Source of the DNA: Pseudovirgaria hyperparasitica
Taxonomy: Eukaryota
Assembly (NCBI GenBank): GCA_010093815.1
Contig: ML996577.1
Strand: one strand, 5' to 3'
Length of the DNA: 64,000 nucleotides
The position numbers were made by a program, and so were the translations under genes. The notes beneath the pieces are model-generated. The model had not been told where the DNA came from and did not search any database. It was given only the letters and a program-made list of their open reading frames with translations. Positions 4,938 through 58,921 of this stretch are shown here, piece after piece (positions within the stretch are counted from its first letter, which is position 1; every line of letters begins with the position of its first letter).

Positions 4938-5399
4938 ATTTTAGAGGTTATACCTAGACTATAAACTTATAGAGGGAGATTAGGACTCCGAAACTAGCTT
5001 AGGGGAAGTATATGGCGTGCCTAATAAGGTAGTCTAGACTTACTAGATCGAAGCTACGAGTCCGGAAAACAGGGAGTCTAGAGTCGCTAGGGGCTAGCCT
5101 CTTAAAAGTAGCTGTAAAAAGCATGTACATGCTAACACGGGTAATAGCGCGACTCGAAAATGTCTTAGGGGAATAGGATATAAAATAGGGCTAGATAAAG
5201 CAGTAAAGAAGAGTTTAAAAACGATAAATATAACCTATTTAGTACTACTATAGCTGTTATTTATAAACACGGCTATACGAGTATACTACTTTAGGAACGC
5301 CTTATATAAAGATAATAATATAAGTAGAATACTATAAACCTTATATCGATAAAGACGATAGTAATAGTTTACCTTATAAAGGGATTAATTAATATAGAG

Positions 5400-12475: not shown

Positions 12476-15403
12476 ATAGCCCCGCCGAAAAAGAAAACGC
12501 CTACCCGTAAAGAGTTATAAGATCGTTAAGTACTAATAAGATAGACGCGGTCCTAGTTAAGAGTCATGAGTACTAAAGTAGGGCCATTAACGGCTATTAT
12601 AGTATCGAGGCTATCTACTACTCTATATAGATAGGCTATAGAAGCTACGGAAGTAAATAAGTCTACTATTAACCGAATTATCGCTATCTAGGACCCGTAA
12701 GAGTAATAGGACTATATTCTAGACACGTTTAATAATCTCCTTTATATTACTAGCCTTATAGAATAGCTCTTAAGTAGTATAGTTAACCTCTTCTAGAAAG
12801 TAGGAGCCGTAATAGGGTATAGTAAGGTAAAGATTAACTCCTTTATTCCGAAAGAAGTCCACGAGATAATTCGTTATAGAAGAGATACTAACTCCTATAT
12901 TCTAAAAGCTAAAAATATAATCCTATAAAACTAGTGAAAAGACCTCCCTAATAACGATAGCTAGTTACTCTAATCCGCCCTCGGATAGCTCTAGTAAATA
13001 TAGAACTTTATAGAAAAGCTAGTAGCGCTCTTACGAGTGCGGACATAGGTAAGAGCGAGGAACTAGTTAAACGTATCTCTATAGTCCCGAATCGGCTAGG
13101 GATAGAAGGGAAGGGGAATTAAGGTATATCTTTAGAGCTCTAATATTAATACCGCCCTAGCTAGTAATAGTAATAAGAACGGTCTATCTCTCTAGTAACT
13201 CTCGAACTACCCTAGCCGATAAAATAAACTAACGTTCTATAATAAGACGGGACTTATTATCCCCGCTAGTTAATAGTTACGGATAAGTAGAATGGTTCAT
13301 AGGCCTATTAAATACTACCTATAAATCAAAGAGATAAGTATATCGCCTCCGCCTTAGACCTTACCGTCGCTAAAACTAGCGTAGGTAACGCCCGCGGTAA
13401 AGTCCCCTCTACAAAGTACGCCTTCTAGTTTAGTAGTATATTATCTCTTCGAAGCTAGTTATCCGTTTAAAGTAAGTATTCCTTCTACTACTACTAGTAA
13501 ACGTCCCTTACCGGGCCATGCAAGAACCTCTTTAGTACCCGTTATAGCTACGCCGATAAAACCTACTCGCGGACGTACCTTATCTACCGGCCCTTAGTAA
13601 TTACTAGGGGCGCCTATACGATAATCCCCGGTTATTCTTAGTTCGCACCCTAAGATAATAGTATTAGTCGAGGAAGAGGACGAGCCTAAGAAGTATCGAT
13701 ACGCGCCTTTAGTAACGAAGACTTTTAAGGTAGCTATATTATTAAAGAAGAATTTCACGAGCATTAAGGGAATGGCCCTACTAGTACGCTAGAAAGCGTA
13801 GATAGGTAACATAGCTATTCCGTATAAAGTCTACTATAAGCATTACTAAGACATAGCTAGAAAGAATAATATACTCGTTAGCGTGTCCTACTTAAACCTA
13901 GTAGTAAGACTTAAAATAGTATATAAGTTTAGAGATAACGTGGGGGCCCTTAAAGTTTATAAGGACTACTATATCTAGTTCGCGAAGTACGCGTGGCCAC
14001 CTTATCCGATAGAGGCATTAGATGTCTATCGTTACTAGGCCCTAGAGACCCCAAAGTAAGTTATTAATATTAAAACCATCCTTACTAGTATTATATTTAT
14101 AATTTAGAAGGAGGATAGTAGGATAGATAGGTAACTCTTCGACGAGTAGGAACGTACCGGAAGTATTAATATTAAAGGGCTCTTTGAGCTACTTAAAAAG
14201 ACGACCTCTATACTTAATAAGAGTATCCTAGAACTCGCGAGGGATGAATTTAATATATATAAGTACTACTAGCGTATGTTTAATAAGAAATCGAACTACG
14301 GCTAGCTACGAACTATATACCACTCCTACATCTAATAGTTTATTAGGTAATACCTACTTTACTAGCTTACCTATATCGCTCTTCGGCCCGATCTTAACTA
14401 CTATCTAATCTCGTACCTATACTATACGAAGTCCTAGAATAGGGGCGATAAGACGGGTTTTAAGTATCTCGATAACGCTATTAATCGAATCCTTAATCCT
14501 AGTAATAGATACGGGTTTAATATAATCTAGGGGAGTATTAGTCTCGACGACGAACGAAGTGACGACTATACTATAATCGTTCCCCGCTTCTATAAGTTCT
14601 TAAATAAATAGTAGTCGAAGGCTAAGCTCCGCAAGGGGGTTAATCGAAACGGTATAATCACGGCTATTAATGATAAGATCTATAATACGGACGATAGGAA
14701 ACGATTTAGTCCCTTCGTCCCGGTCCCCTACTAGTCCCTTAAAGTGCGTATCTCTAGCCTACTAATAATACACGGCGCCTAGGGTCCCGCAAAGGGTGGA
14801 AGACGTACGATACTTCCATAGTATATTACGATTAGCCCTAATTACATAATAATAGAAGTGCCTAAAATAGATACATAGGAATAACTCGTAGTAGCTTATA
14901 GGAATTTAACTCTAGGACCTATGTCTCCGTCGGGATTTTCTAATAAATATAGCGCGATTCCTTTTACCTTCCTAGCCGTAGTTTAACTCCCGAGTTTTAA
15001 CGCCGTTAGTAACGTATTAGTCGGCCGTAAAAGATAGGATAGCTAGAAGGTAAAAGAAGAGGTAGCTACGTAGCTTAACGTAAGTCCTTAATAACTTAAA
15101 GCTAAGGTAGACGCCTAGTTTAAGGAGGGCTCGAGGGTATTCGTAGAGACCTTTAAGAAAATAGTAAGGTAGAAAAGGCTAGTCTATAGGGATAGGTCGT
15201 TCTAGAAGGAATTTAACGAGGCACGCGCCGCTAAGCGGCTAATTAATTTTAAGAAATTTAAGCCCGACGCGGGCCTAGATAATATTATAGAGAACTTCTA
15301 TAGATAGGAGAGACCTAACGAACTATCCGACGAGGAGGAATCTAACCTCTCTAAGATAAGTAATACGATTCTTTAGGAGCTGGCTCGCGACCTCGAGTAC
15401 TAA
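12476..15403 (+). pseudogene. Extra ORF of Gypsy element 1 (~975 codons) with a C-terminal PhyH-like 2OG-Fe(II) dioxygenase domain
   Basis: Start, motifs and stop all lie in frame +2, beginning (M)APPKKKTPTRKE. Reconstructed motifs: GFK(H)LD 14456-14473, I(Q)GSISLDDE, (C)TIIVPRF(H), VRISS(P)LIIHGA (intact CAC at 14771), RRTILP(W). Confidence 0.7.
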
Positions 15404-15607
15404 GATTAGGCGCCTAAAAACCTACCTAATTATTAGTTAAGGGCTGCCCTTAACTAATAATCCGGGCTAAGGTTTACCCGCGCCGAGAGGTTTACTAGGG
15501 GCGCATTTTATTCGTATTAAGGTCTTTCTTTTAGGCGTTCTTTACACGGTTTCTTACACGGTTACTATACTACTAAGGGTAGTAGTTCTATGGGCCGGGG
15601 AGGTATA

Positions 15608-15931
15608 TGTAGAAGGCCGCTCCTATAGCCCTATATGTATATGTCCCTAGCTCGATTATATAGCTTTATTATATATTTAAGGAGGGCGTTTTCCTTGGTC
15701 ATTCTACTCGGCACGCTTCCCCCATTACTAATATTCGATAATTTAACCTTTTCTTACGTTTATAGGCCTCTATGGGTATTAATTATTAGGCTTAGCTATT
15801 AAAGAATTAATTAAGAGTATTATATAGACCCGTCCTATTATAAAAGAGAACTAATAAGAAGTCGTACGTTTAAAGAGAACTTATAATACCTAGGAGAGAT
15901 ACTTAGACATACGTGGCGATAGCTTACCATA
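15608..15931 (+). repeat. 3' LTR of Gypsy element 1
   Basis: tgtagaaggccgctcc...cttaccata, followed by the TSD gtag. Confidence 0.93.
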
Positions 15932-15935
15932 GTAG

Positions 15936-18600
15936 ATATATATCGGATAGTACATTAGCGAACGGCCTTAACTTTAAAATTCTTTCTATAGACGACGACT
16001 CTAACGGAGATGAAGTAAAGCTAGATATAGAGGACTTAATACCGGTAGATAACGATGTTAGTATAAAACTATAGGAAGCGTAAGTTATACTAAGAAGTAA
16101 GTAGGAATATATACTACTATACTAATGTACCTATAGAATATTCGCCGTTAATAACTCCGATAAAGTAGTCTAAGCTATCTCTTATTATATAGAAGAGATA
16201 CGGTTACTTACTATAAGTATATTTAGGCTTACGCTAGACGACCTAATAAAGGAGTTCGGCCATATACCCACTCTATATCTAGCCTTTAGTATAAGTAGGT
16301 TATATAGGCTATAGGCCGGCTAGTTACTCGCGGTAGTTACTATATTTAAGTAGCGGGTGGGTCCGTGAAAGTACTAGATCTTAGTAGATAGCCTAGGGCT
16401 AGAGAAGATAATCGTACTTATAACGTTTATCCGCCTCGCGTTTTATTAGAACTTTCTACGCGATAATATAGAACTTAATCTAGGAAATTATCTATAACCG
16501 ACTTAAGACTCGGGCATAGATAGGAAGTGCCCGATATAATCTCTATATCCGATTAAATGTCCGTATAGCTAGACCGATAATTTCGTCTATATGCCCCGCC
16601 TTTAAGGACTATTTATACTATACTACCTAAGGTCCCTTCTAATAGTGTATTAGCTATAGCGCTTTAAATAGATATATAACGATATGGATAGTATGTTTAC
16701 CGATTAAATCGATAAACGGAACCTAATAAAGATAATAGTGCGGCTAGTATACTCGAAAACCCTTACCGACGCCTCTAGTATCCGATAATTCTCGTATATA
16801 GACCGATAATACTTAGCTAAGAGATACCTACACCCCGAATAGAAACATAGCGTCGATATTAGTAATGCTACTAAATTCGAGACCGACAAGGAGTATATCG
16901 TTAGAGTATAGTCGATTCCCGTTAATAGAACCGCTACCACCGAATTTCCGTCGCGATACGCGAAGAACCATATAATCTATAGTACTATCTAGAGTATAGA
17001 ACCCTAATATCTTAAATCTTTTAAGGGATATATAGTTATAAGAGTAAAGAGGGCGAAATAATTTGGTACTAAAAATACTTAAACTCGCGAAGTAGCATTC
17101 CTCGGTATATTAATAGTAGACGAGTTCTATTCTATAAAGAACCCCGATATAAAATAGTATAAATATATAATATATAATACCCTTATATTTAGTATATGGG
17201 TTAGTATAACGCCCCTCTCGAATAGTCTAGTAGATATTCTAGCGGCTATCGAGGTAGATACTCCGGATAAGTTACCCGACTACGTTAACGATAATACTAC
17301 TAAAAGAGTATTCGAGAGCCTATAGAATAAAACTATAAGAAAGATTATTATAACGTAGTCGAATAAACTTCTTAGTTTAATAAAAGGTAAGCCGGCGGAC
17401 ATGATGGCCGCGATAGTCCGTAGGGCATTAGAAACTATAGAAGGTAAGCGTATACTACGTATAGTAGCCGATTAGTATTTACTATTCATTCTATAACGGG
17501 GACTACTAACTAAATGGTTTAATAGAGAGGCATGTCTATCTACGATATTAAAGCTAGTAGTAGAGTTTATATCCGTCCCGGCTATAGAACTAGAGAAGAT
17601 AATTATATAGTTATACGAGAATAGAGGTAGATAGTTTAATAATCTATAGCCTAACGGAACGCCGCGGGACTCGTAGATATAATCTACCGCCTAGAGTAAA
17701 TCGAAAGGGGGTACTAGGTCTAGGCTTAACGCATACTACCATTAGGCTAGGCTAGCTACTACGTGTATACTACTTATATACCTTACTAATAAAAAGATAG
17801 AAGATAAGTAAATTAATATCACGCTCACGCGTCGGAGGGATAGTAATAATAGTATACCGAGTAAGATAATTACTAATCCTATACGCGAAGTACTTCTATA
17901 GCTAGATAAGGCTATACGAAAGAAGATAGTATCGCTAGCTAATAAACACGCTTTAAAGGTAAACTAGATCTATAACTTCATTAATAATAATATTTATAAT
18001 AAAAGTACTAGACGCGCGCGACGAACATCCGCTAACCGCCTAGAGAAAATTATACTCGCATATACTATACCGGTAAGCTTAATGTTCCTATACTTAGTAA
18101 GTGTTTATACTACCTACTAGTAACGTAATTTACTAATATATATAGGTACTACGTCCATATATATAAGCGAAAATATTAGTATATTTACTAGCCGGCCTAA
18201 GTACGTCCGAATTAAATAAGGTATATAGATTATTTAGATCGACTAAGTCGGATTCTCCGTGTATTCTACTAGTATTAGCTTCGTAGGTCTACGAAGGATA
18301 AGATCTAATAGTTACTAGTTTTATAGTATTAGTAGACTAATGCTTACGTAAGGAGACGTGGCCGTAGGCAAGTATAAGATATTATCGCCATGGATAATAT
18401 CGGCCTATAGTATATGCATATACTTTAATTTTAGACTATTTAGAGGTCGAGGCTAGACTTACCGCGTTAGGCAAGGTAATCGAAAGCACGAGAATATAAG
18501 CCTTAGACCTAGAAAAAGGAGATGCAGCTACGGTAGAGATAGCTATATCTAATATACTAGTAATAGGCGTACGCTTTAATCCTATAGAGATATAGTAGTA
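15936..18600 (+). pseudogene. Degenerate SNF2-family (SF2) helicase/ATPase domain; its N-terminal part probably lies at ~2500-4613
   Basis: Frame +1, RIP-reversed: L(A)DxxGL(G)K(T) at 16381; LLIV motif Ia ~16635; ILIVDEF(H) at 17107-17130; WVSxTPLSNS ~17200; possible YRV(G)Q motif VI ~18460; intron-like gtaagt...ctaa...tag ~18097-18145. Confidence 0.72.
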
Positions 18601-18736
18601 TAGAAGTAAGTAAGGTAGTCGGTTAATTAGCTTCTAAGAGACTAGATAGTATAGTAGTATAAATACGAACCACTATTTACTCGTAATTATATATCTATAT
18701 ATATCTATACGTGAAGAGAAATAAGATATTTATTCT

Positions 18737-19270
18737 ATACCGTTATATAGTAGAACGTTACTATATATGCCGGCATATAACGGAATATTCCGACATACGC
18801 CGGTATATTATAGGATATTTCTAGATACTCGAAGTATAGTCGTAGTATAAAGTAGTATTACTATTATATACCGGCATATAGTAGGACGTTACTATATATA
18901 CCGGTATATAATAGGATTATGTTCCGACATACTATACGCCGCTAGTATATTATAGAATATTCCTAGATACTTAAAGTATAGTCGTAATATAAAGTAGTAT
19001 CGCTATACTATACTAGTATTTAGTAGGACGTTACTATATATACCGGCATATAACGGGATTAAACGTTTTCTTAACGTTCGATAGAACGATTCTAAAAGAA
19101 CCGGGACGGCTCTAGGAGAACTAGGACGACTCCGGGAGGACTAGGACGACTCTAGAAGGATTAGGATAACTCTAGAAGTACCGGGACGACTCTAGGAGGA
19201 TTAGGATAACTCTAGAAGTACCGGGACCCATTTGGGATAACTTTAGAAGTACCGGGAGACCTAGAAGCAT
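18737..19270. repeat. Subterminal tandem repeats: 3 units of ~130-140 bp, then ~8 units of 20 bp (ccgggacgactctaggagga-like)
   Basis: gtaggacgttactatatataccgg-like sequence recurs at ~18749, 18880 and 19022; 20-bp periodicity at 19100-19270. Confidence 0.8.
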
Positions 19271-19294
19271 TGGGAGCGCCGTATCTTTCCTAAT

Positions 19295-19521
19295 GGACGG
19301 GTCTATATAATACTCTTAATTAATTCTTTAATAGTTAAGCCTAATAATTAATATCTATAGAAGCCTATAAACATAAGGAAAAGTCGAATAGTCGAATATT
19401 AGTGATAGGGAAGCGTCCCGAGTAGAATAACCAAGGAAAACGCCCTCCTTAAATATACAATGAAGCCATGTAATCGAGCTAGGGACATATACATGTAGGG
19501 CTGTAGGAGCGGCCTTCCACA
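19295..19521 (-). mobile_element. Truncated inverted copy of the Gypsy-1 LTR (first ~227 nt)
   Basis: Reverse complement of 4614-4841; retains the TGTGGAAGG terminus at 19521. Confidence 0.92.
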
Positions 19522-19529
19522 CTATACAA

Positions 19530-20619
19530 TCTTAATCTAGGCCCTCGGTTTGTATCCAATTCTATATGCCGAAGTCTAACACGGGCTAGTGGAGGCATGG
19601 CATGTTAGCGTCTTTAGCGGTCTTCGCATTAATTAACTAGCTTACTTATACTCATCTAAGCAAGGTATTCCTTGACGTGTATACCTGATCTAAGAACGTT
19701 GTCGGGCATAGGACGCCGGGTTGCGATTTCCGTCTCACAGGCGCTAGCATCAAAGATATATATCTCCTTAGTTCCGGCCTTAGTAATAATATTACATTCC
19801 TATAAGTCGTGTTACTTAGATATTAGCATGTAAAGAGGCTTCTCGGAGGGCAACGTACCGCCATGAATCAAAGATAGCTTGACTTCACGCCCGCCAGATT
19901 CCAAAGGACCTAACACGGCTAGTATAACACGTACTATAACTTCCTCTACTAATTAGCTATCTAATATCCTTTCTCGTACCATGCGCTTGTTCGTCCATAA
20001 GTAGACTACCACGAAGTAGTTAAACGAAAAAGCTTACCTAACTTGGTTTCCATGTTTTATCTAGCTAAACGTTGCCCCTCGATGGCTTAACATGAAATCC
20101 AAACATATTTATGGGAGATATATTAGAGTTGTGCAGAGCAACAAGCTTTTCGCAACGTTTTGTTGGGTCTGGTTCTTGATCTACTGCTGTTATAAAGTCG
20201 CAAAGAAGAAAATTTGTCTCCGGTTCAGTCGAACTAAGCTTGCCCTAAGGGTGCGGTTTTAGAATAAGTTTTAGGGTACCTTTTGTACAACTCGTTCATG
20301 AACTCGAATTCTCCCTCTAGCATTGCTCGACCGCGATCATTTTTAGCGCACCTATTTTGGTAAGTAGTCTTTGTAGTCGATATGTCATTGAACATGCCGT
20401 TTAAGAAGAGCGACTTCGTTCCGTAATCTATTTTCGTAGCTGTAGTCTATTCTAAATCTACAAGGCCATGGTAGGACTAGAAAGTTACTCCGGAGGGCAA
20501 TTCTAAACATGTTAGTGGCTAGCCCATGAATTTGTACTTTTAAGCTTACTAGCAATCATAGCTTGATCGAGAGGGAAGTCGCCCTAAGTGTTCTCACTGT
20601 TTGCGGTGGGTGCAGCCAT
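19530..20619 (-). pseudogene. Fructosamine-3-kinase / protein-ribulosamine kinase-like pseudogene
   Basis: Minus-strand translation gives GDFPLDQ, GRAMLEGEFEFMNELYK, FLLCDF..EPDP..LVALH..SP.NMFGFHV, VLGPLESGGREVKLSLIHG and IYIFDASA, with many TAG/TAA stops at Gln/Trp positions. Confidence 0.75.
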
Positions 20620-23670: not shown

Positions 23671-25032
23671 TCAAGAAGGAATGTGAGCAGCTGGCATCCC
23701 CTTCAGTCCGATGCTTGCATCGTTCTGATGTGGTATACCCCAGCCGGTCTCAATATCTGTTTCCACAATGATGGTGTTCCCGGTATGGCTCTTATCCATT
23801 ACGAATGACTCGTCCCGGCTATATTTCCGATTGCCTTCACTAGCCTCTCCGCGCGAACGAAGAGAAGTCGTGGAGAATGTGCTCCTAATGCTCTGAATTA
23901 TCCTTCCTGCCGAAGCGTAGCGGATCAATGGTGACAAGGTCAGTAAGCTAGCTGCAATAAGGCCGACGCCCGTCTCTACGACCATCCAAGTTACAGCGAT
24001 AGTGGCAATATCTAGAAATGGTTAGGATTAGATCGTTATAGGGCTGGACAAGACTCGCATTCACCGTCCGGGAACGACCAGTGTCCATTCCATACTATAA
24101 CCCAGTTGACAAGTCGTACTAAGGAAGCGGCAGTAGCCCTAGTAGAATGAGTGAACATAGCACGGCGAATGGATCAGTGTAGCTCACAAGGACCCAATCA
24201 TAAACACCCCAACAATCGAGAACTTCTGACGAGTTCGCATGTGAAGACCCCAGATCTGTCAGAATTAGATTAGATGACCGTGACAGCAATTCTGTGAGGA
24301 TCCGCACCTTTGGAATTGGCATGACCAGTATGATCAGATCAGTCAAGAAGCTTGCTATGGATGCCGCAAAAGACAAATTGTCCGCCAGTGGACATTTTCT
24401 ATTGATGTTAACCACGGTGTCCCATCGAGTCGCAACACCAGAGCTGCCGCAGGCAAAGATCTGGCTGAAGATGTAGGCTACGGTCCAAATCAAGACAATG
24501 GCGACCATGGTATACACTAAATAAGTGAACTTCGGTCTACTTCGCGTGCAAAAGAGTCTTTTGTAGAAGAATAGAATGCTAAGTTTGACGAGACTTGTTG
24601 ATAGTGCATACAACGGATGCATAACAAACTGAATCTACGCCTGATTTAGCTGTTATCACGATGTACTGCATAGCGCTGCTCACCATCATGAAGTTTTTCT
24701 GCTCTGGAGACATAGAATACCTGAACCCTCCAGGGCCAGGTACATTGGGTGGAGGCGCAGGGTAGCCGAGTGAGTGTGAGAAAGTTCCTATCCTGCGTGA
24801 GCACGCTCACAGATATCTATTTTCAAACATGAATCTACTCACCCCATAATGCAATGCCAAAGACGCCATACGCGAAAATGAGTGCTGGCAAGATCAGCCA
24901 GTCTTCTAGGCCTGCCTTCGACTCGTGTGCTCGTCGTGACCAGAAACGGAGGCCGGTTGTGAGTGTTCCAATTGCTGCGAGGAGGAAACATACTGTCGTC
25001 AGCATATGTGCCTCATACGGTTGTTTATACAT
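23671..25032 (-). CDS. PTH11-like (rhodopsin-domain) integral membrane protein, 6 exons, no CFEM domain
   Basis: LRFWSR..GLEDWLILPAL, LVKLSILFFYKRLF, TDLIILVMPIPK|IWGLHMRTRQK, WMVVETGVGLIAASL.TL.PL; five short GT-AG introns. Confidence 0.88.
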
Positions 25033-25436: not shown

Positions 25437-26289
25437 ATGAAGTACTTCGCAGTACCACAATCCGATGAGACGTCCATAGCCCCGTCATCGCAGACTGAAC
25501 AAAGACGCGGATGGCGACTCGACAGCTTCTGGTGGAAGTGTACCTCGCTATTACTGCTAAGCATCAATACAATACTCACTGTTCAAATCCTTCGCTCGCC
25601 ACGATGCAGCCCAATAGACAGTTCTCTCGGACACCCCACAAGTTTTAGTAAGTATCATAGTCTCAGCACCGTTCCTGCAGCGTACTGATGCCGTGAAGCT
25701 GGGATACACGAAACGAGTAGAGAAGTGCGAAACTCCTGGTGGACACGCTACAGCGCCGAGAACGATGGCCAAAGACCCGCCGTTGACGAAGCTTGGAATG
25801 CATTACGTGCAGACCATGGCATCGTTGCATTGCCATATGAATGGTCAAAGAACAAGGGTTTGCCATCAAGTCTGATCCTTCCCTCCGACAGATCGAAGCG
25901 AGTTTATATCCTTGAGTCATACCATATGCTTCATTGCCTGGTAAGGGCAATACAATAGCATTCAGATGTCAGTATTAACGGTTGTTCAGCAATTGACCCG
26001 CAAGTCCATCTACCAGATGCGAGGCAACGAACCTCTGACGTACCACTTCGATCACGTAGAACATTGTATTGATGCGCTTCGGCAACATGTTATGTGTAAT
26101 GCTGACGATACACTGCTGTACATACCTGGGAACGGCACTGCTGGGCATGGACAAACAAGACAGTGCAAGGATTGGAATTATTTGAGTAAGTGGGCTACCA
26201 AGAATACTGCTTGCTTCGAAGATAAAACGCCAACGTCTGGGGTGTTTGGGTCTTGCGATGACGGCTCAGATGGACTGGTTTTGGACTGA
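25437..26289 (+). CDS. UstYa-like DUF3328 oxidase, 250 aa (exons 25437-25647, 25699-25940, 25990-26289)
   Basis: N-terminal TM segment, VDEAWNAL, YHMLHCL and HVEHCIDALRQHVMCNADDT (two HxxHC motifs), RQCKDW; spliced length 753 nt is in frame. Confidence 0.93.
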
Positions 26290-26474
26290 AAGTGGGATAT
26301 TCGCGATGTAACTATCTTCCTAATAGGATCAAGTGTTCATTTGGAGCGACAATATAAGCCCTTATCCACATTGGATGCATCTATGACCGCTCTACTTTCC
26401 CAGCTACATCCGCTGTAGGACATACTTCTAGTTCCTTATGCTTGCGTGCTAGCAATCCTGCTGTGGCAAAGGAT

Positions 26475-26685
26475 TCACCAAGCCCTGATCAAACATGGCC
26501 GCCCCTCCACATTATCACCAGTGCCTATGAAACGTAATTTTAGTAACGAGGGGCCAGGCCAGATGACGACAACACGCACATTTGGCTTCGTAGCCATCGA
26601 GCTCGCCTTCCGGACTCGTGGGAAGAGATGAGACTCCCATCGCAAGGGCAAGTAGAATTTGGTAGCAGATAGTGCTGAACTTCAT
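26475..26685 (-). CDS. Small secreted peptide, 51 aa, candidate RiPP precursor (exons 26685-26580, 26524-26475): MKFSTICYQILLALAMGVSSLPTSPEGELDGYEAKCTGDNVEGRPCLIRAW
   Basis: Strong start context caatcaccATG; MKF-hydrophobic-VSS|LP signal-peptide pattern; 55-bp intron gtgcgt...tactaaa...catag; convergent with the DUF3328 gene, stops 185 bp apart. Confidence 0.75.
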
Positions 26686-28135
26686 GGTGATTGACTGTCA
26701 ACTCGCTGTTGAATGCTGAGGTCGAAACAGTAGAGGTATATGGCTAATGAGCAACCAAGTGCAATGACAAACGGGTTGAAGGAATGGACGATTCAAGTTG
26801 TTAAGACGTGAACCAGGGAAGGGTCTTGGTCCCAACCGACTTGTCAGGCGGGTCCACTTGTCGGACACCTCTTTCGGACCGAATTTCGATTGCGGACACA
26901 GATCAATCGGCCCGAAAGCATTCCATAAACTAAGTAACCTTGAATTTGCAGATCGCCAGATCAAAGACTTGTGGACCTTATGCTCAGCGTCCAGCGTGAG
27001 AACAAAGAATTATAAAGGCCATCAGTAATGAGAGTTCGCATCGACTGACTTATGCTTGATTAGGTATATTAAAGAGACTACAAGAGAAATATGCAATCGT
27101 TCGTCCGGTCTTTGTACTGCCTTGGCCTGCTGAGCGTATAATACAAGCATGGCCGTACAAACGGGCTAAATGCCGAAGTGCCCACACCTCCTCAGCTTCA
27201 CAGCGATCATAGCATCATAATTTAGGGACTCCCGGACACCTGCCAGTAACGAAAGCCCAACACATCGGATCCGTAAGCACGAATGCGGCGGAGGGTTTTG
27301 CCAAGCGACTACTCACAGCGATCTTTCATTCGGCGCTTCGCACTGACCCATCGCCAAACGGGCGGGCCGCACTGCGGTTGGCTTGTGGAGGGTCCTTGTG
27401 GCTGGACCTTGTGGCGCCGTCCTTATGGGAACAGGAGTGTCAGAGTAAACAAGGTCTCATACATGTATGGCTTCTATATCTTCCCAAAATCACGGCTATC
27501 TCGCTCAAGGAACGCTTTGCGAGATTACAGTTTCATCTCAGCCCGTAGTGCATTCTCCATTTGCCCAAGATGGTGATAACACGATGCGCACCCTGGATGA
27601 ACAAACACGGTCCCGAGAGCCTCGAGTCGAGTTGGGCGTTATGGACACAACCCCTACAAGTTTCAAGCATGCGGTCCTCCTGCAATATCTTCAAGATATC
27701 ACACTGCCTATTTGTAGGAGATAAGAGTATATCCCACGCAACAGTTCCCCAGTTCGGACCGAAATGCTGTTTCATGCAGCAGAAGCCGCATGCATGCAGA
27801 CTTCCTATCAATCAGTTCAGTTCAACTTTGGGCATCTAGTTGAACTGGACTGAAGTACTTCAATCCTAGCCGTCGTAGAATTGGATTGAACTGTCAATCC
27901 TAGTAGTAGAATTGAAGTTGAACTGGACTGGACTGAAGAATATTAGTAAGATTAGCTAAAAGTCTTAAAGATAGAAAAAATTCATAGTATTTTGAGGCTA
28001 TATATCTATATTACCTATATAGTAATTCTTAATATAAGTAAGTAATAGGCTAAAAGGAGACTATTTAGGTTATTAATATATAGCTATTAGTAGAGAGACT
28101 CTATGTGGTTTTTTATATATGAGAGTGATGGATAA

Positions 28136-28290
28136 GTCACGTGATAGTCACGTGATTATCACGTGGCTTCACTTATTCCATCACATGATGGCTCACGTGA
28201 TATAGTCCATGATCGCTTACCTAGCAGGAGTCACATGCTTATCATGTAATCACGTCACATGACACATCACGTGACATTGAGTCACGTGAC
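28136..28290. repeat. Dense cluster of CACGTG (E-box) motifs inside the hAT-type element
   Basis: Six exact CACGTG (28138, 28149, 28160, 28194, 28268, 28283) plus CACATG variants in ~155 bp. Confidence 0.85.
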
Positions 28291-28306
28291 ATCTTCCTCA
28301 TGAATC

Positions 28307-31300
28307 TATGGGAACTTTGGTAAATTAGACGTGGCAAAATTGATTGACGTATCTACTAAGTCTATCTAAGTACTATATATACTAGCCTAACACTAAATAA
28401 GATCTAAGTAACGGGGATTACCTAATAGGAATCCTATATCTTCCCTCTTCTAATTATATAAGCTCCTATAAGACCGTTAAAGATAATTAACGGAGTTAGA
28501 ATATATAATATAGGGAGGTAGGCGTGTGAAATCTCTTCGGCGCTAGGCCGTATTAGCGACACGTCGCGTAAGGGCGGTGGTCTAAGCTTATTTTAGTGCT
28601 AAATAGTCACCTTTACTATTCCTATATTCTACCGTTCTTTAACCTTACATTTCTTAACTAATTTAACCCTTTCCTTAGTTTTTCCAGCGCTAATTCCTTT
28701 TAATAATATCTAATAACATAGCTGAAACTCCTGCGAACTTAGAAATTACTCTAATTAATGCTATAATTTCATGTATATAAACTTTAACTTCACCTTTTTC
28801 CCTTCTAACTTAAACTTCCTATAGCGGACATGGTTATAAATAAGGATCTTTGTCGTGCTTTCTTAGGTCCTCCATATAGAAATCCTAACTGGTTATTACT
28901 TAATAAAGTATTAGCGGCGAATAAAGGTGCTCTAGATAGTAGGTTAAGTTACCTTATTCCTTAAGTATAGGTTAACTATATAGTTCGTAAGAGTTACTTA
29001 AAGATGGCCCACGGCTATCTATATCCGAACGGGCCTTAGGGTTCGCCATTCTTTTAAGAACTAGACCTAGAAGATAAAGCTTTAGCTTAGTTAATCGAAG
29101 AAGGCGGTTAGAGCCTTAAACCTAAGGTCTCTAAGGCTGAAGTTAAGGCTCCGGCCTCTTAAGGATCGGTAATAGCTATTAATAAGCCTCTTTCTAAGGT
29201 GGAAGGTGATTCGTTTAATATACCCTTCTATAAGAATCCTACTAACCTATATAGATCTTCTAGATAAAGTTACGGGTCCGGAGTCTACGTTAATTACCCT
29301 TAATAAGCCCTTTGAAGTCTCTACGAAAGCTAGTCGGTTCGCGAACCTATCGGAAGACTCTAATAATGTTTTCTATCCTAAAAATAAAGATAGGGAAAGC
29401 TCTAGGTTATTAGACCTCGATAGTAATACGTTAATCGAAGTTAACGAGCTCGGCGATGTGGTTACTCCTAAGGCAACTAAGAAAGGTAAGTTACTAAGTC
29501 TTATATTAAGATTCTAGTTCCTAATTCTTATCTAGGCTCTCGTCCTAGAATACCTAGGACTCTAGTAAAGACCTGTAGTGCCGTAAGGACTCTATTAAAG
29601 GTGTTTAACAGCCCTAAAACTCGCTCCATAACTTCTAAGCTGGCTATTATAGACCTTAAAAGTCCTAATAAGGTCGTTAAGAAGACTCCCGTGAAGCGAA
29701 AGGGGTCTATAGCTTCTCGTAAGGTTAGTGCGATAGCGTAACCTATAGTAAATAAACTTAATAGCTATAGCGATACCGAGATCGAAGTGGTAGATTGTAT
29801 AGGCCTCCGAGTTCGATCTAATTACTACTTCTTTTTAGAGAAGTCTATCGAGTTTATATAGTAGTTGGCTTACTAGAGTAAGTCCTTATCTCGTTAATTA
29901 TCTTTAATAGTTAGCTAACTTATTCTAGGGTGGCTGTTCTCGGACCCTCCTATCGACGGAACGCTCTATAAGGAATTTATTAATGGCCTTATTAAGGCGT
30001 ACGCCAGTGGTTAGCACGCCTCGATTCCGAAGGATCTACTTCCATTCTATATAATAGATAAGTTCGGTAACTACTATTATCCTTAGGATATCGTAGTAGG
30101 AGGAGGGATCTTTCGGGATCCTTCGAAACGCCTAGATAGGTTGTATCCCTATACTATTCTAGCTATCCTAGGCATGATGGCTCGCGGCGCATACTAGTAC
30201 TTTAGCGATAGCGCCTATAGTTCTTATTCTACTAGCAAAGGCATCTTTAGGGAGTGTATGCAGCTTTTTCCTAACGGGTTCCTACTATTTAAAGGTACCT
30301 GTTTAAACTATTTCTACTAAGGGAATAGGAAATTCTATAGCATGTCGCGTTATAAGTTATTCCTTTATATCGTTAAAGGCTTTTAATAGATTTAACGCGT
30401 TCCTATAGTATACCGTAGCGAGCGTAACGTTATTAAAAAGCGCTAATATACCGAGTAGTCTTCGTTTATAGAGATAACTAAGGCCACTAGAAAGTATTCG
30501 GCTGCTAAACTTCGTTAAAAGAAGTTATTAGGTCTTAAGGAGACTAGGTTAAACTCTAAGGCTGGTCCTTCGCTCGTGAGTTAGATTTATATCTCGTGTG
30601 ATCTCTAGCTAATTAAAAGGTTACAGCTATAATAGAATGGATATATTACGGCGGTCCGGAGGTCCTCGTTCCTAGCTTTAATAATACTATACCTCCCGAC
30701 CCGAGCATTATCCCTATTCATTCTATATAGGACCTTAAAGATGAAGGACTTCCGCTTAACGAAGCCGTTGAAGATTGGTTTAGTCGTCCGATAAACGCGT
30801 TTAGCGAGGTTAGCCGCACGCCTTAAGGGCTACTATATAAGTTCTTAATTAACGATAGCATGCCCGAGGAGGGCGAGAAGGTGTTAGTATAATTTACGAA
30901 GAATCCACTGAATTCTACTCGTAAGGTCTAGGACTAAGTAGGCGGCTTCTATTTTATAATGATACCCCATCTTATTAAGCGTTAAAAGGCGTTAACGGCT
31001 TTCTTTTATCTCTGTTTGGTCTTACGGTTCTTAAATAGCGATTTTAGACTTATATAATATCATTATAAGTCCACGTCTTCTTTCTTTAACCTCCTAGTAA
31101 TTTCTAAGGCTCGTTAATCTTCTTTAATAGCCGTATATGTTCTAAATAAGTGAATGGGGGGTTAGTAGTACTATATATAAAGGAGATAATTAGGGAAAGA
31201 CTAAAGTTAGTTATATTCTAAGCTTTCCTATAATAGCTTTAAAGGTAATATCTTTTTCCGTAGGGAGTACCTCTCTCCCTCTAATCTATTAACTCGTCTT

Positions 31301-34300
31301 AACGCGCTGGCTATAGCCGCTTAGGTTTCTCTACTATATTCATCTATATAGGATCGCTTTCTCTTTCGCGTGTAAGGTTCGCTTTCTATAAGATCCCGTA
31401 TAGGGATATCCGAGTTAGTTAGGGGTTATTTATTCGCTTCGTTAACCTCCTTTAATACTTCTTCTATATCTAAGTCTATATCTATACTTATAGGATTCTT
31501 ATATTCTAGTTAGATATCCTTATCTAAGTCTATTCGTGTATCATTAAACTCGTCTCCTAAGCTTATTTCTTTAGGTAATTCTTCCTGTCTCGCTTCTATT
31601 ATGGCTTCCTCTACCGTGTTAATCTCGTTTAACGGGTTATCTATCGGTTTCTTAGTTATCGTTTAGGCTTCCTCTACCCTTAGAGCATCGTAGCTCTCTT
31701 TAATATTTATTATCGGCGGTTATATCGCTCTGCTATTCTCGTGTTATTCTTCTAGTATATTTTTTAGTTCGTTAATAATGATTAGCACTAGTACGATTAA
31801 CGTAGTTACGGTAGCTCTCCGTTTACGTCGATTTCTTATATTAGTAAGCCTGATTTAACGCGTAATATCTACGTCTATCGAGCTCTCCTCTACTAAGAAT
31901 AAACGTACGCCCTCGTACGTTAACTCTCGTTAACTCCATAGCTACTATAGCCGGTTCCACTCCTTCTTAGGAAGGGAGGATAGAGTCGTCTAATATAGGG
32001 TAGGTTTCTCTTTCTCTAAAACCTTCTTAATGTCTAGTAAGTAAGGTGCCACTTGATTCCTAATTTCCTTAGACATTTATAAGTTAATCTCCTATCTCGT
32101 CTAGAAGTCATCTAGCTTATTAATGCCTCTTGCCGTAATTAGCCTATTGCCATGTATAAGGTGTCGTAGAATACGTCCGTTAGGTGTTTCTAGCGCGTAT
32201 ATACCTAAGGGGTGTTATATATAAACCTTATAGGGACCTAAGTAGTTCGTTTTGAACTTCGTTTTCTATTTATTCTTTAGTAAAACGATTTAACTAATAG
32301 ATAGTCGCGCCTAGTCTTTAGGTTTAAGCCGAGTCGGATCTATAAGGTCTCGGTAAGCGGCTTCCATAAGTAGTTCGTTTAGCGCTAGCGTCCTAGCGTG
32401 TTATACTTTCTTAACTTGCTTAATAAGTTCGTTAAAGGATATTAACTTATCCTTTTCTCTAGGAATATTCCCTAGTAAGTTAGGGTACTATCTATATACT
32501 AGATAATATAGACTAACTTCTATACTCCTGTGTCGTCGGATCCTCGTGGCGAAAACGGCGGCTGGTAAGTATATATCCTAGTTAGTTACTAGTTCGCCTA
32601 TATACATGCGGGTAAGGATGCCTCCTAAGGTTCTATTAAGGCGTTCGACCTTTCCGTTTATACGAGGGTGATAAGGCGTAGTAAGTTTATATTCCGTCTT
32701 AAGGATACGTAGTAGTGCGCTAACCACTCTTAATAGGAACTACTAACTATTATCTAAGGTTAGTACGGCGGGGGGTCTAAAATCTATGAAGATTCGTTTA
32801 TAAATGAACCTCGTGATAGACTCTACGGTCGCCTCGGGGACTACCTATACGATAGGCTATCCCGTTGCGTAGTTAATTACTATTATTACCTAACTGTTAC
32901 CGTTATGCGTAGTGGGGAGTACGCCTATAAAGTCGATACCCTATTCTTTAAAGGGTGCTCGGCGTGTAACCCTATGAAACTATCTCTCGTGTTATGGATT
33001 TGGTGGCACTCGTTGCGCTAATTGGCATTGACGGTAATTGCGAGCGACCACCTCTACGTCTTTCTTCATTTTAAACTACCAGCCTTGTTTTTCTAGGGCT
33101 CCTAGTAGTCCGGGCCATATAAAGTGACCGAATTATTAATATATAGTTTCTACTAGCAACTTGCGGTATTATTCCGGGATGTAAGGCGCTGAATTTTCCG
33201 CTAAATCTTCTTAACTATTATTAAAATCCTATAGCTTATATCGAAGTTTACTCTCGGCGTCGAGGCGTAGTCGAGATAGGATTTCGGGAGAGACTTTTAG
33301 TACATGCTCTATTAGGTCGGCTCCTTTTAGGAACTCGATAATTTAGGCTATGAGAACGTGTTTATTAACTTTACTTAATGGTATTACGGAGATCTCGCCT
33401 TAGAAGTCTAGCCTTCTACTAATGGCGTTAGGTACCACCGCCTTAGATCCTAGGCGATATTTTATGTCGAGATCGAAGCTTCCGAACTTATCAATCCATC
33501 TATCTATACGGCCTCCTTATTCCTTTATAGACTTAAGGAACTATAGGCTATGGTAATCGGTTAGGATCGTCGTCTTCTTCGTTCCTAGTAGGTATCTCTA
33601 AGTGCGTAGGGCGTGTTTAATAGCGAGGAGTTCTTTTTCGTGAACCGGATAGTTAAGCTCGGCGCCATTAAGCTTTCGTCCGTTAAACGCGATTAGCTAA
33701 TACTACTTGCTAGGATCCTCCTAGTAGATTACTATACCGATCGCATAGTTACTTACATCCGTTTTAATGTAGAAGGGCTTAGTCTTATTAGGTTAAGCTA
33801 GAACCGGTTCGGAATACAGGGCATTCTTTAGGGTCTTAAAGGTAAACGCCGTTAATAGCGTCCATCGAATAGGCCTATATTTCTATTTACGGATAAGAGG
33901 GTCTACTTCCTTAAGGAGGTCTATTAGGGGTGCGGCGATACTCGCGAATCCCTGGATATACCTCCGATAATAATTCGCTAGGCCGAGGAACTATCGGACT
34001 TCGCTAACGTTCGTAGGCTCTAGCCATTCGCGAATTACCTTAATCTTATCCTTTATCGGGCGAAGTTATCCTTATAAGACGTGGTATCCATAGAAGTTAA
34101 CTTCGGTCTAGCTAAAACTATATTTCTCCGGATTGGTAAGCAAGCGGTATTCACGGAGTAGGGCAAGTACTTTTAATAGTACTCTAGCGTGTTCTTCTAT
34201 ATCTTCGGAAAAGATAATAATGTCGTTAAGGTATACAACTACAGATTTGTATAGTAGGGGTTAAAGGACTCGATTTATCATCTTTTAGAATGTGGTAGGT

Positions 34301-37300
34301 GCGTTTAATAGACCGAACGGCATTACCTTAAACTCGTATTTACCGTGAATTATATTAAAGGCGGTCTTAGGGACGTCTTCGTCGGCTACTCGTACTTGCT
34401 AAAACCCTAAGGTTAAGTCTATCTTGCTAAACACTATTAACTAGCCGAAGGCACGTAGGTATTCGTCTATACGCGGAAGAGGGGTCGTATCCTTACGCGT
34501 GAGTGTATTAAGTGCTCGATAATCAATATATATTCGTTATTTGCCTCCGGGTTTAGATACGAAAAGTACTAGGCTACCCTAGGTACTTTCTAATTCTTGG
34601 ATAAGCCCTCGCTCGATAAGCTCCTATATCTACTTCTACTATTTAGCGATTTGTTCTAGGGAGAGGCGGTAGGCGGCGTTATTAACGGGTCGGCCGTCTC
34701 CTATATCTATCTTATAGTCCTATTATCTCGAAGGTAGTAGTCCTTTAGGTAGCTTTTCTTTAAAGACGTCCTAGTACTCCGTTAAAACCGTTTATAGCAT
34801 TAGGTCGGGTGCCTATAGTATAGGAGGGTTGTCTTTCCTAATGAACTATATTACACCTTACTTACAGCCGTTTAGATATTGTTTCCGTGCTTGGCTGGCG
34901 GTAAGGACGTTTAGCACTTGTTCTCCTTATAAGTTAATGTCGATTAACGCGGGAATCCCCTTAAGGAGATACTCCTTAGTCCTTCCTCGAGCTACTAGCC
35001 TCCTAATTACTAGGGAATAGGATCTCCACGATATATTGGGATCCTATTTATAAAGCCATTCATAACCTAGAATTAGATTATAGCCCTTAAGGTCGAGTAC
35101 TCTCGCAGAGACTTCGTAAGTGAAGCTTTCTATACGAAGAGGGATTTTTATAACTTCTTAACTTGTTATTAGGGCTCCTAACGAAAGCTTAACACGTATT
35201 ACGGGGGTAGGTTACGGTACTAGCTTTAGACGCCTAGTAACCTTCGTTAACGTATACGTTCTATTAGCCCTATAGTTAATAAGGACTAAAACCCTCTAGG
35301 GGTGGACTTCCCCTACGTAAGCCTTAAGTTCTAGTAACTATCTACTAATAGAGTTTAGTTGATAGAGGCGATCGTCGATAACGTCCGTTAACTCCTCTTA
35401 ATAATAGTAGATACTCTCTAGCGATTTATAAAGCGCGTTAATATATTCGTAGTCCCATGTGTTTATCTTGTTTTCATCGGTATTATTAGTATAGAAGCTC
35501 TTATAGTCGCTCGTGGTGTCTTCTATGTCTACTATAGGCGACTAGCTTTTAGGGCCTCTTCGTTAAAGACGCTTAACGCGTTATCCTCGGTAGTAACGTA
35601 GGCTAGCTTACCTAGAGTCGGATTTTCGGGGTAGAATCTCGAGATATATCCTAACTTCTTATAGTTAAAGTATTCTCGGGTTTCGTTAAGAGCTCTTAAC
35701 GAGCCTCCTTAGTATTTACCACGGCCTCGGCCTCGGTTCTAGCCTCTACCACGGCCTCGGTTACTCTATTAACGCTTCACGAACGCGTGGAGCTTACCCT
35801 CGTCTCTAGAGTAGTCGCCTAATTTATCTTCACGTGTATATAAGTCCTTAGAAGGTTCGAATTCTTCCGGTTCCTCCTCTTCGTCTTAGTAATATATAGT
35901 ATTAATATAATGAGTAGCCTCCCGCCTATAGTATTCGTTTCTAGAGTAGATATATAAGGCTTCCTCTAGCCTCTTCACCCATAGGTACTACTCTTCTAAT
36001 TCTATAGGAGGAAAGGGCTGCTTTTCGATCTCACGTTAAACCTTAGACTTAAGGGCGCCTAGAATTCTACGCTATATCTTATATTTAGAAGGCATGGGTT
36101 ATAGGAGTCGTGCCTTTTTAACGATAGCGTCGATAAGCTTTAAGGTAGATCCGAAACGATATTAAGTAAGGTTCTCCTATTCCTTTCTACGCTATTTAGG
36201 GCGATTAGTAGAGATATACGTTCGACGTATAATATCTAGAAAGCCGTCTAGTATTTAAGGACTATCTAGGTTATTACGTCCACGGGCTTCTATAAGGCTA
36301 CGCTAGAGGGTGCGGATATGCTTTAATATATATATCCCGTAGATTTATAGTTTCTTAAACTTAGGTATAGCTTCCTAGCGCTCTACTAATTCCACGGTAT
36401 AAATCTATTCCTAGATTAATAAGTACTATTCCTCGTAGGCGTTATCTCTAGTTTCTCCCGAGTATATATCGGGTACTTAGAGTAGAATGCGGCCTCTTCT
36501 TACTAGTATAGCTAGGCTCGCCCGGTTAGGGTTATTAAGGAGGAGGTTATTAAAGTCTCTTACTAGTTCTTCTCGAGTGATATAGTCGTTTCTTATTTAT
36601 AACTCGAGTCGATTGGTATATATATTAATTAGTACTAACGTACGAGCGTCTCTAGTAAGGTCCCTTATAGCCGGGTTAGTATTAAGGAGCGCGGTAAGCG
36701 CGTTAATGGTGTTTAACGGCTTATTACGGGCGCGTCCTATATTTTAGGGAGCATTAGCTCCTCCTATAGGGACGTCGCCGTTACGATCGGGGTTCTATAA
36801 GGAAGATATCTTAATATAGCTTAGGTAAGGAAGGCGTTTCCTAGGGTGATAATTATCTTCCGAGTTAGAATTACGGCGTTAATTTATATTAACGAGTAGC
36901 TAGGATGTCTATCGCGGATATAGGGGGAGTTAATATATATTTTTCTTACGTGACTCTTTTAGCTTATTTTATAATATATTACTATCCGCTAGGACTATCG
37001 AATTTAGTCGTTAAGCTTTATTACCGTAATTTCTATCTCCGAAATTAGGATGTGTCGCTTTAGAGAAGGGTTTTTATATTAGACTCTAGGTTTATTCTTA
37101 TTATCGTCTAGTAAGTTATATAGTTCGTCGTAAGCGTTAAATGTTTTTAACGAGTTCCCTTATATAAGGGGTGAGATAACTACCCCTTAGGAGGCATCGC
37201 CGAAGCGATAGCCTCCCTAGGAGGATAAAAACCAGATTTTAGCTACTAGATGTGGGAACTTTAGTAAATTAGACGTGGTAAAATTGATTGACGTGTCTAC

Positions 37301-37382
37301 TAAGTCTATCTAAGTGCTATATATACCAGCCTAACGCTGAATAAGATCTAAGTAACGGGGATTACCTAATAGGAATCCCATA
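28307..37382 (-). mobile_element. Full-length RIP-inactivated Ty3/Gypsy LTR retrotransposon 2 (~9.1 kb)
   Basis: 132-bp LTRs at 28307-28438 and 37251-37382; TSD AATC; PPT (tcttccctcttc on +) at 28439; minus-strand protease ~35280, RT VYL(D)DI ~34225, RNase H ~33765, integrase ~33100-32200. Confidence 0.92.
29004..30900 (+). pseudogene. Antisense accessory ORF of Gypsy 2 with a DUF3716-like Cys-rich domain (boundaries approximate)
   Basis: 30177-30342 reads MARG...A(C)SS(C)ST(G)KGIFRECM...GTCLN(C)FY(Q)GN(G)KF(C)S after RIP reversal, matching the CxxC-G.F..C-CxNC-CS pattern. Confidence 0.6.
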
Positions 37383-38086
37383 AATCTACCCGAATCACCT
37401 AACCTCAAGAGGATATCTACTAATATACCTATCTATATATAACTTCAGTTCAACTCAACTATTAGCAACTCAATCCTACCCTAGAATTGAATTGGACTGA
37501 AGATCCAACCCTTGGCAAGAGGCCTCAGTTGAACTGGACTGAGTCAATTCTGGAGAGGCAGAATTGAAGTTGGACTGATTGATAGGAACTCTGCATGCAT
37601 GTTGGTTCCTCGTACCAAGATTGTCTCGGCATGGCTGTCTCACTGCTAGATCTGAGCATGCGATCGCTTGAAGGAAGCGAATTGAACAATCCATAAATTT
37701 TGCATTCACGTATCATGACAAGTACCGGGACTCGCATCGTACACCTGGCAAAGCGATGTAATTGAACCGCCTGGCTAGGCGCATGCAGTGTTGTACTGCT
37801 TCAGTAGTACAAGCTCAAGTCCAAAGCCTTCTTTTCCATCACATAATTGATAGCTGTTAAGTTAAAGTCGTCGTAGCATTCTAAGCAAACCAAATTGAGA
37901 TTTCAAGAATGACAAACATGTGGCGAGAAAAGAAGTCATCAAGAGTAAGTGGCTTTACCTACAGGCAATGGGTAGCTCAGGGATACATTCCAGATCTCCA
38001 AGACGACTGTGCAGCCCCATCTCAGATAGTATGTCTCTCGTCCGCTATAAACGTCCAAATCCATGTCTCAATCATTACCTCGCAAT

Positions 38087-58889: not shown

Positions 58890-58921
<32 letters not shown>

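Follow-up and report, generated by a model that had tools for sequence, protein, structure and literature searches.

The subject of this study is a small gene of Pseudovirgaria hyperparasitica, described as a fungicolous hyphomycete of rust sori (PMC3317363). The gene lies in a stretch of 64,000 nucleotides of contig ML996577.1 (NCBI GenBank assembly GCA_010093815.1), here called the window. It has 51 codons in two exons on the minus strand and stands tail-to-tail with a gene for an oxidase of the UstYa (DUF3328) family. The 51-codon gene is real, spliced and expressed. We regard as evenly balanced the proposal that it encodes a single-core, dikaritin-like precursor of a peptide synthesized ribosomally and modified post-translationally (RiPP), the substrate of a compact four-gene cluster. 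This reading was reached because an expressed gene lies extremely close to the UstYa gene in a sharply bounded four-gene island, because the three enzyme and membrane-protein genes of the island are conserved at two related loci together with a matching Cys/Trp peptide gene, and because there is independent evidence for single-core mini-precursors in UstYa clusters. The co-occurrence of the peptide with UstYa is supported by architecture, not by sequence. Mining for UstYa-type RiPPs seeks signal-peptide proteins with repeats flanked by KR, and many UstYa clusters are therefore without a known substrate. An expressed and spliced single-core candidate in a four-gene island offers a very small test system.

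A sequence-only reading of the window had described a hidden minus-strand gene of 51 codons with a signal peptide, an acidic spacer and a Cys/Trp tail; the sequence and the spliced translation agree with that description exactly. The phase-1 intron is placed after residue 35 of 51, and the last exon supplies a core of 15–16 residues with the C-terminus ...GRPCLIRAW. The start codon stands in the context ATCACCATGAAG, a strong context with A at -3, and the closest upstream ATG on the minus strand is 236 nt away. The N-terminus has n-, h- and c-regions, and hydropathy and the -3/-1 rule, the two criteria applied, fit a signal peptide. A stricter signal-peptide heuristic turned the peptide down owing to a Gln in the h-region. 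That heuristic was uninformative because it gave 0 matches in the window and so missed the window's own peptide. Two Cys follow the predicted cleavage site, the sole Tyr is in the spacer, and the C-terminal residue is Trp. Neither a repeat nor a KR or other dibasic site occurs among the 51 residues of the spliced translation, as had been read from the letters. The protein database has no entry for the peptide, and on that ground the gene counts as unannotated.

Four sequencing runs matched the locus. Two of them (X1 and X2) are of DNA type, possibly those from which the assembly was made. The other two (X3 and X4) belong to a different study and derive from one sample; these runs have no kind on record, and their contigs are unstranded. 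Over positions 23500-27300 the X3/X4 contigs show eight splice joints, five in the membrane-protein gene, two in the UstYa gene and one in the peptide gene, all with canonical ends except for one GC..AG intron. None of the eight was found in the DNA runs, in which 0 contigs carry the peptide-gene joint. Since the joints are present in X3/X4 and absent from X1/X2, X3 and X4 were classified as transcript assemblies, and the intron predicted from the sequence at 26525-26579 is therefore real. In both assemblies 26523/4 is joined to 26579/80, with 55 nt skipped and ends reading CT..AC, which is GT..AG on the minus strand. Both introns of the UstYa gene (25648-25698 and 25941-25989) are also removed. 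RNA-type contigs give unbroken cover between the UstYa and peptide genes, the 185-bp spacer included; being unstranded, they do not place the 3' ends and show only that both genes are expressed in the X3/X4 sample, with transcripts that overlap or meet end to end. For the peptide gene the contigs contain the spliced form only, although contigs drop rare variants. The X3 contig ends at 26759.

It is very improbable that the minus-strand transcript is non-coding, either a convergent antisense RNA or a 3'-overlapping RNA of the UstYa gene, and that the 51-codon open reading frame (ORF) arose by chance. The ORF is short, the contigs are unstranded, and the unspliced form is itself an ORF of 56 codons (26515-26685, minus strand) that also ends in Trp, with four further Cys/His-rich residues, so such ORFs arise easily. 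The X4 contig also extends to 27125, 440 nt 5' of the peptide ATG, and takes in four upstream ATGs beyond 26921. This extension (26686-27125), seen in an unstranded contig, could be a long alternative 5' untranslated region or an overlapping transcript. Against a chance ORF, the frame is kept across the intron, no earlier ATG occurs over at least 236 nt and the start context is strong, the N-terminus has the three regions of a signal peptide, and the architecture is repeated in 11 other gene models.

The neighbouring gene encodes a member of the UstYa family. Exon 3 matched Pfam PF11807 with an E value of 2.4e-15 (57.5 bits, cut-off 25) and exon 2 with 3.1e-4. The three-exon model corresponds to a database protein of 250 amino acids (P0001) with 100% identity when the last exon is the query; P0001 carries PF11807 and is labelled hypothetical protein, Pseudovirgaria hyperparasitica. 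Its two HxxHC motifs, H146/H149/C150 and H173/H176/C177, are invariant in 6/6 aligned relatives, and the protein is intact. A hydrophobic stretch at about residues 37-59, seen by inspection of the sequence, is a predicted N-terminal anchor. With the last base of the UstYa stop codon at 26289 and the lowest base of the peptide stop at 26475, the spacing of 185 bp between the peptide gene and an intact double-HxxHC gene is confirmed. The protein is divergent, its best annotated database relatives being 46–47% identical.

The peptide and UstYa genes belong to a 7-kb island that also contains genes for a cytochrome P450 and a PTH11-like, seven-transmembrane-like (7TM-like) protein, with repeats on either side that bear signatures like those of repeat-induced point mutation (RIP). 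The composition of the island is normal (GC 0.475, TpA/ApT 0.73, (CpA+TpG)/(ApC+GpT) 1.23); the values for the AT-rich blocks that bound it are given in Table 1. No gene for a non-ribosomal peptide synthetase (NRPS), a polyketide synthase or a repeat peptide was found among the 28 ORFs scanned in the window, and no other plausible secreted-peptide ORF was found across 18–30 kb of it.

The closest known systems are the dikaritin pathways (ustiloxin B, phomopsins, asperipin-2a and victorin), in which a precursor, there with a signal peptide and in the window with a predicted one, stands beside a UstYa protein with two HxxHC motifs and the presumed core contains an aromatic residue. A P450 belongs to the ustiloxin pathway too (PMC12048977), and the mean distance between precursor and UstYa is given as about three genes (PMC7329392, PMC12048977). 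The window differs in having a single core where dikaritins have 5–16 repeats, in having no Kex2 (KR) sites, and in a core that ends in Trp and has two Cys, not one of the Tyr-x-Ile type. Its precursor has 51 amino acids and is split by an intron just ahead of the core, and its island has no tyrosinase or methyltransferase gene. The window gene is set apart from the dikaritin members because it has neither KR-flanked repeats nor a core with Tyr.

Metagenome contigs were scanned with an alignment of six UstYa proteins, which gave 170 relatives; 80 loci representing 40 distinct groups were kept. An earlier scan with a single UstYa exon had given 47 pattern matches and no relative among them. A pattern derived from three genes was then run over the 80 loci. 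It describes a family, here called Tyr-type, of two-exon genes of 46–54 amino acids in which a phase-1 intron follows a signal-peptide-like exon and the last exon reads ...D.V[DN]...IG..Y-stop. The motif was found in 17/80 loci, equivalent to 8/40 groups, and all stops were 0.3–1.8 kb from a UstYa match. None of the controls matched: the count was 0 for the window, for the reversed loci and for the 5 triplet shuffles. Twelve of the Tyr-type cores can be aligned without gaps.

Several Tyr-type loci also have a second UstYa gene, a tyrosinase and an O-methyltransferase. The same lichen-like gene content (two UstYa, tyrosinase, O-methyltransferase) is present in many of the metagenome loci. A 2025 survey of lichen UstY clusters reports no repeat precursor in the UstY-centred 'Clan R1/R2' clusters and suggests a single-core peptide (PMC12048977). 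In contrast, explicit ...IG..Y single-core candidates stand in 8 of our metagenome groups. The window differs from the lichen clusters in having a P450 and a 7TM-like protein, no tyrosinase or O-methyltransferase, and a Trp/Cys core. From their sequences and positions, the Tyr-type genes are candidate single-core precursors of lichen-type UstYa/tyrosinase/O-methyltransferase clusters. Because these genes occur in a gene set that matches the lichen clusters lacking a precursor, it is very probable that UstYa clusters do have single-core precursors, in the form of small split genes that annotation and repeat mining overlook.

The architecture is constant. In 12/12 gene models, including the window's, a phase-1 intron separates the signal/spacer and core exons. 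In the 11 other models the single-core forms have 46–54 amino acids, and all 11 end in Tyr or Trp. The window gene fits this architecture, with 51 amino acids, a phase-1 intron, an aromatic C-terminus (Trp) and 185 bp to UstYa. One locus has a multi-core relative of the Tyr-type genes: the L033 product has a predicted signal peptide and five copies of the core ...VD.ES[IV]GR[AV]Y, with AR, KR or RR ahead of each repeat except the first, and has 82 amino acids in one model and 107 in a fuller model. On this evidence L033 appears to be a classical Kex2-type multi-core precursor that links the single-core forms to such precursors. A second repeat precursor was modelled at L028. Both have a signal peptide and at least two repeats split by KR and so qualify as Kex2-processed (KEP) proteins; the window peptide does not.

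The loci with UstYa proteins closest to that of the window among the 80 (E 4e-44 to 3e-40) are L001 and the group L002-L007. P450 homologues with 47–50% identity in the C-terminal half were found in only 5/80 loci, with no match in the others; these five are L001 and four members of the L002-L007 group, and the P450 lies 1.2–1.8 kb from UstYa. Both groups have a homologous PTH11-like gene upstream of UstYa on the opposite strand. In L001 the ORFs put these two genes in divergent orientation, like their window counterparts, and the UstYa intron that follows HxLHCL is at the window's position. The L001 UstYa protein is 78% identical to a protein of Lachnellula suecica, which places the L001 lineage far from the Dothideomycete of the window. 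PTH11-like genes are present within 5 kb of UstYa homologues in 12/40 groups, often upstream on the opposite strand (other examples are L009, L010, L016, L022, L031, L041 and L045); this is a raw count for a large family.

L001 and L005 are the only loci with the gene trio that extend far enough to show the region of the peptide gene, and in both a three-exon gene for a secreted peptide was modelled. The predicted peptides begin like a signal peptide, continue with a variable middle that has one Cys and close with a last exon ...PISP[EK]CSW. Their mature part thus contains two Cys and ends in Trp, features that the sequence-only reading had named beforehand. The cluster genes of L001 and L005 share about 78% DNA identity, and the peptide gene can be aligned only at its exons and splice sites amid diverged DNA. 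The last exon has 5 synonymous and 3 non-synonymous changes. The suggestion that such a peptide co-occurs with related DUF3328 genes was thus upheld in part, with Cys/Trp mini-peptides at L001 and L005 and Tyr-ended ones in 8/40 groups; it did not hold at the level of sequence homology or at L007, where no peptide was found. The further suggestion of a separate, single-core DUF3328 substrate gained from the recurrence of the architecture at related loci, while the substrate relation and the cross-link are still matters of interpretation.

Several results weigh against the precursor reading, beginning with the peptide itself, which has neither a repeat nor a KR site and whose core lacks Tyr. 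The window peptide is without a detectable sequence homologue in the data searched. A word-index search of the protein database with the unspliced ORF gave no candidate. phmmer with the 35 residues of exon 1 against 1.84 billion representatives gave 2 matches with E ≤0.001; these proteins, of 919 and 1424 amino acids, were rejected because no stretch could be aligned. The spliced peptide, assembled computationally, was compared by tblastn with the 80 metagenome loci and scored at chance level (best E 0.068 over 8 residues). Two tblastn leads were discarded, 'RPCL..LRGW' in L018, which is not an ORF end, and 'ALAMGASS' in L048, which lies inside a major facilitator superfamily transporter. The peptide region gave one match in a different frame; its E of 5e-4, with several hundred queries run, was judged to be chance. 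When the C-terminal 13-mer of the window peptide was compared with ORF tails in the 40 groups, none resembled it; the best score was 26, rank 87/423. A profile of the 12 Tyr-type cores gave no match to the window's last-exon ORF at E up to 1000, and it ranked the last exons of L001 and L005 46th and 40th of 603. In view of the Tyr-type profile result, homology among the three kinds of core (window, Trp-type at L001 and L005, and Tyr-type) is not demonstrated. An alignment made by eye between the window core and the L033 repeat (D.V[DE]...[VL].RA[YW]) was dropped when the profile search gave no support.

The arrangement at related loci also counts against a precursor. The peptide genes of L001 and L005 are not tail-to-tail with UstYa; they lie on the far side of the membrane-protein gene, at a distance of about 3.8 kb from the UstYa match. 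No peptide gene was found in L007, which is 94% identical to L005 over the cluster core; its synteny with L005 breaks at L005:2340, between the peptide and membrane-protein genes. Among 161 signal-like starts enumerated as gene models 8 (about 5%) have a terminal Trp, and the pattern C.{0,6}W-stop, with 123 occurrences in 285 kb, is common by chance. A lenient heuristic for convergent signal-like ORFs ≤1.3 kb from UstYa gave 13/36 groups, where 13.1 were expected. The L001, L005 and Tyr-type peptides are gene models without RNA support. Finally, 'Cyclochlorotine biosynthesis protein R' is the automatic name of P0004, a near relative of the UstYa protein that is 47% identical over 56% of the query, and UstYa relatives are reported to tailor non-ribosomal peptides as well (PMC12048977).

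Some of these results speak for an alternative that we judge unlikely, though it is the strongest of the competing explanations: the peptide would be an orphan secreted peptide of this mycoparasite (for example lineage-specific and effector-like, antimicrobial or signalling) with one Cys36-Cys46 disulfide loop and unrelated to its neighbours, its adjacency to UstYa would be chance, and the other three genes would act on another, possibly non-ribosomal, substrate. The failure to find a sequence homologue is typical of fast-evolving secreted peptides, and genes for such peptides often sit in RIP-affected, repeat-rich compartments. The window gene lies at the edge of such a compartment. No general excess of convergent signal-like ORFs was seen beside UstYa genes, no analogous peptide accompanies the synteny at L007, and UstYa relatives act in NRPS pathways, as the name of P0004 and PMC12048977 indicate. 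An orphan peptide fits less well with the island, which has no other possible substrate gene, and with the single-core mini-precursors in 8/40 other UstYa groups, which are tied to a classical multi-core form. Cys/Trp mini-peptide genes were also found in the only two trio loci that extend far enough.

The effector version of this alternative invites comparison with small secreted cysteine-containing effector candidates, which share with the window peptide, itself predicted to be secreted, a small size, lineage specificity and a place beside RIP-affected repeats. By convention a cysteine-rich effector is a secreted protein of less than about 200 amino acids, usually with at least four Cys and several disulfides. 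Two Cys after the predicted cleavage site are few for this class, and the window peptide falls outside it. The peptide also differs from effector candidates in lying inside a conserved enzyme cluster and in having analogues beside orthologous clusters.

Under the precursor reading, the peptide would enter the endoplasmic reticulum (ER) via its signal peptide and be cut near Ser20. The membrane-anchored UstYa protein, with its HxxHC motifs on the lumenal side, would then oxidise the core encoded by the last exon. By analogy, the likeliest reaction would be a side-chain cross-link through the C-terminal Trp, which stands where related single-core precursors carry Tyr. Known dikaritins carry Tyr-O to C-beta ether links, and a cross-linked Trp/Cys core would widen the known chemistry of the UstYa family. 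The P450 would act as a second tailoring oxidase. Since the peptide has no KR site, the acidic spacer would be trimmed by proteases other than Kex2, and a small product would be secreted. The 7TM-like membrane protein may serve export, self-protection or sensing.

A variant keeps the ribosomal precursor and makes the P450 the cross-linker, as in bacterial biarylitide and cyptide systems, leaving UstYa another tailoring step or none. Of the genes in the island, the P450 shows the most specific co-inheritance with the UstYa clade of the window, being present in 5 loci of the two closest groups only, and the core has a Trp with a nearby Cys. Fungal microsomal P450s face the cytosol, whereas a precursor with a signal peptide would be lumenal, and the Tyr-type clusters, with UstYa, tyrosinase and O-methyltransferase, gave no P450 match among the ORFs of at least 120 amino acids scanned. 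UstYa is therefore the common denominator, and we consider P450 cross-linking improbable. Bacterial P450s do form aryl cross-links on tiny precursors (PMC12150307, PMC13185096). The bacterial precursors resemble the window peptide in their minimal size, aromatic residues near the C-terminus and adjoining P450 (PMC12150307, PMC13185096), but they are cytosolic and leaderless, whereas the window peptide has a predicted ER signal peptide and a UstYa partner.

A broader reading is held tentatively. A hidden single-core class may be commonly used by UstYa proteins across Pezizomycotina, with the window gene as a Trp/Cys subtype that has a dedicated P450 and 7TM-like protein and gives a Trp-cross-linked cyclic peptide. 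Genes of this class would be unannotated, of 46–54 codons in two or three exons, the last exon being the core with Tyr or Trp at the stop and needing no Kex2 site or repeat. If this is true, Trp would be linked, for example, to Cys or to an aliphatic C-beta, a reaction that has yet to be ascribed to UstYa enzymes, and many 'orphan' UstYa clusters, such as the lichen ones, would be explained. From the related loci a simple rule for searches can be drawn up: near UstYa, look for a signal-peptide exon that a phase-1 intron separates from a last exon with Tyr or Trp at its end and no more than about 16 codons. It could assign precursors to many orphan UstYa clusters.

Other known systems resemble the window in part. 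The DUF3328 enzymes of the cyclochlorotine pathway (CctO/P2/R), which work with an NRPS, belong to the same protein family as the window UstYa, but the window has no NRPS gene among the 28 ORFs scanned and has a peptide gene 185 bp from UstYa. The MSDIN precursors of amatoxins and phallotoxins are also very small, single-core and ribosomal, and Trp and Cys are notable in both. MSDIN products carry a Trp-Cys (tryptathionine) cross-link. These basidiomycete peptides have no signal peptide and are cut and cyclised by the prolyl oligopeptidase POPB, whereas the window peptide has a signal-peptide-like start and the window has no prolyl oligopeptidase gene. The acalitide precursor AcaA is another RiPP precursor of a fungus that has a single core with Cys and does not follow the repeat pattern (PMC10840396). 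It differs in having 81 amino acids and four Cys, in head-to-tail cyclisation by a dedicated peptidase and in having no UstYa, and general ER enzymes are assumed to form its disulfides (PMC10840396). No account of single-core UstYa precursors or of the window peptide was found in the literature, and neither was an association of UstYa with PTH11-like proteins or a UstYa/PTH11-like/P450 module; the search covered few subscription journals and no supplements.

Table 1. Positions of the peptide gene, its neighbours and related features. Positions are those of the window unless a locus is named; a dot marks a feature without strand.
Feature	Position	Strand	Details and evidence
Predicted secreted-peptide gene, 51 aa, two exons, unannotated	26475..26685	-	Sequence, spliced translation, RNA-type contigs
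Peptide gene exon 1	26580-26685	-	106 nt, ATG at 26685; encodes signal-peptide-like start and acidic spacer
Peptide gene intron, phase 1	26525-26579	-	55 nt; GTGCGT donor, ACTAAA branch-like site, TAG acceptor
Peptide gene exon 2	26475-26524	-	50 nt including stop (26475-26477); encodes C-terminal core
Tail-to-tail spacer between the two stop codons	26290..26474	.	185 bp; unbroken RNA-type contig cover, two records at 25989-26523
UstYa/DUF3328 gene, 250 aa	25437..26289	+	Three exons, 25437-25647, 25699-25940, 25990-26289; PF11807, spliced contigs
PTH11-like / Fung_rhodopsin multi-pass membrane-protein gene	23671..25032	-	PF20684, E 7.2e-19; divergent from UstYa gene; five introns spliced
Cytochrome P450 gene	21622..23237	-	PF00067, E 1.4e-38; coordinates ORF-derived
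Left island boundary, AT-rich RIP-like block	4300..20000	.	GC 0.37, TpA/ApT 1.70, (CpA+TpG)/(ApC+GpT) 0.22
Right island boundary, AT-rich RIP-like block	28000..37500	.	GC 0.39, TpA/ApT 1.67, (CpA+TpG)/(ApC+GpT) 0.35
Three-exon predicted secreted-peptide gene, 54 aa	L001:925-1207	-	ATG 1207, stop 925; gene model
Three-exon predicted secreted-peptide gene, 51 aa	L005:1235-1512	-	ATG 1512, stop 1235; gene model
Tyr-type loci	L008, L014, L016, L040, L047, L050, L054, L058		Motif and gene models
Tyr-type gene	L016, ATG 7266 to stop 7477	+	
Tyr-type gene	L040, ATG 3637 to stop 3442	-	
Tyr-type gene	L047, ATG 7296 to stop 7494	+	
Multi-core relative, signal peptide and five cores	L033:3229-3605	-	About 1.4 kb from UstYa homologue
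KEP-like precursor, ...PGSPDNLERR... repeats	L028, about 1100-1488	-	Convergent to UstYa homologue; single one-intron model
Cys/Met-metabolism pyridoxal phosphate (PLP) enzyme	38090-38965	-	Housekeeping
Pumilio-family protein	49365-51791	+	Housekeeping
D123 protein	53179-54396	+	Housekeeping
Glutamate synthase	58043-63999	-	Housekeeping; runs off the window

Transcript contigs of the membrane-protein gene cover 23523-25147. Its intron at 24012-24058, which the contigs of both X3 and X4 show spliced out, is the one with GC..AG ends when read on the minus strand and CT..GC when read on the plus strand. The left AT-rich block is preceded by an assembly gap, a run of 420 N at 3625-4044. Housekeeping genes begin at about 38 kb and continue through position 64000.

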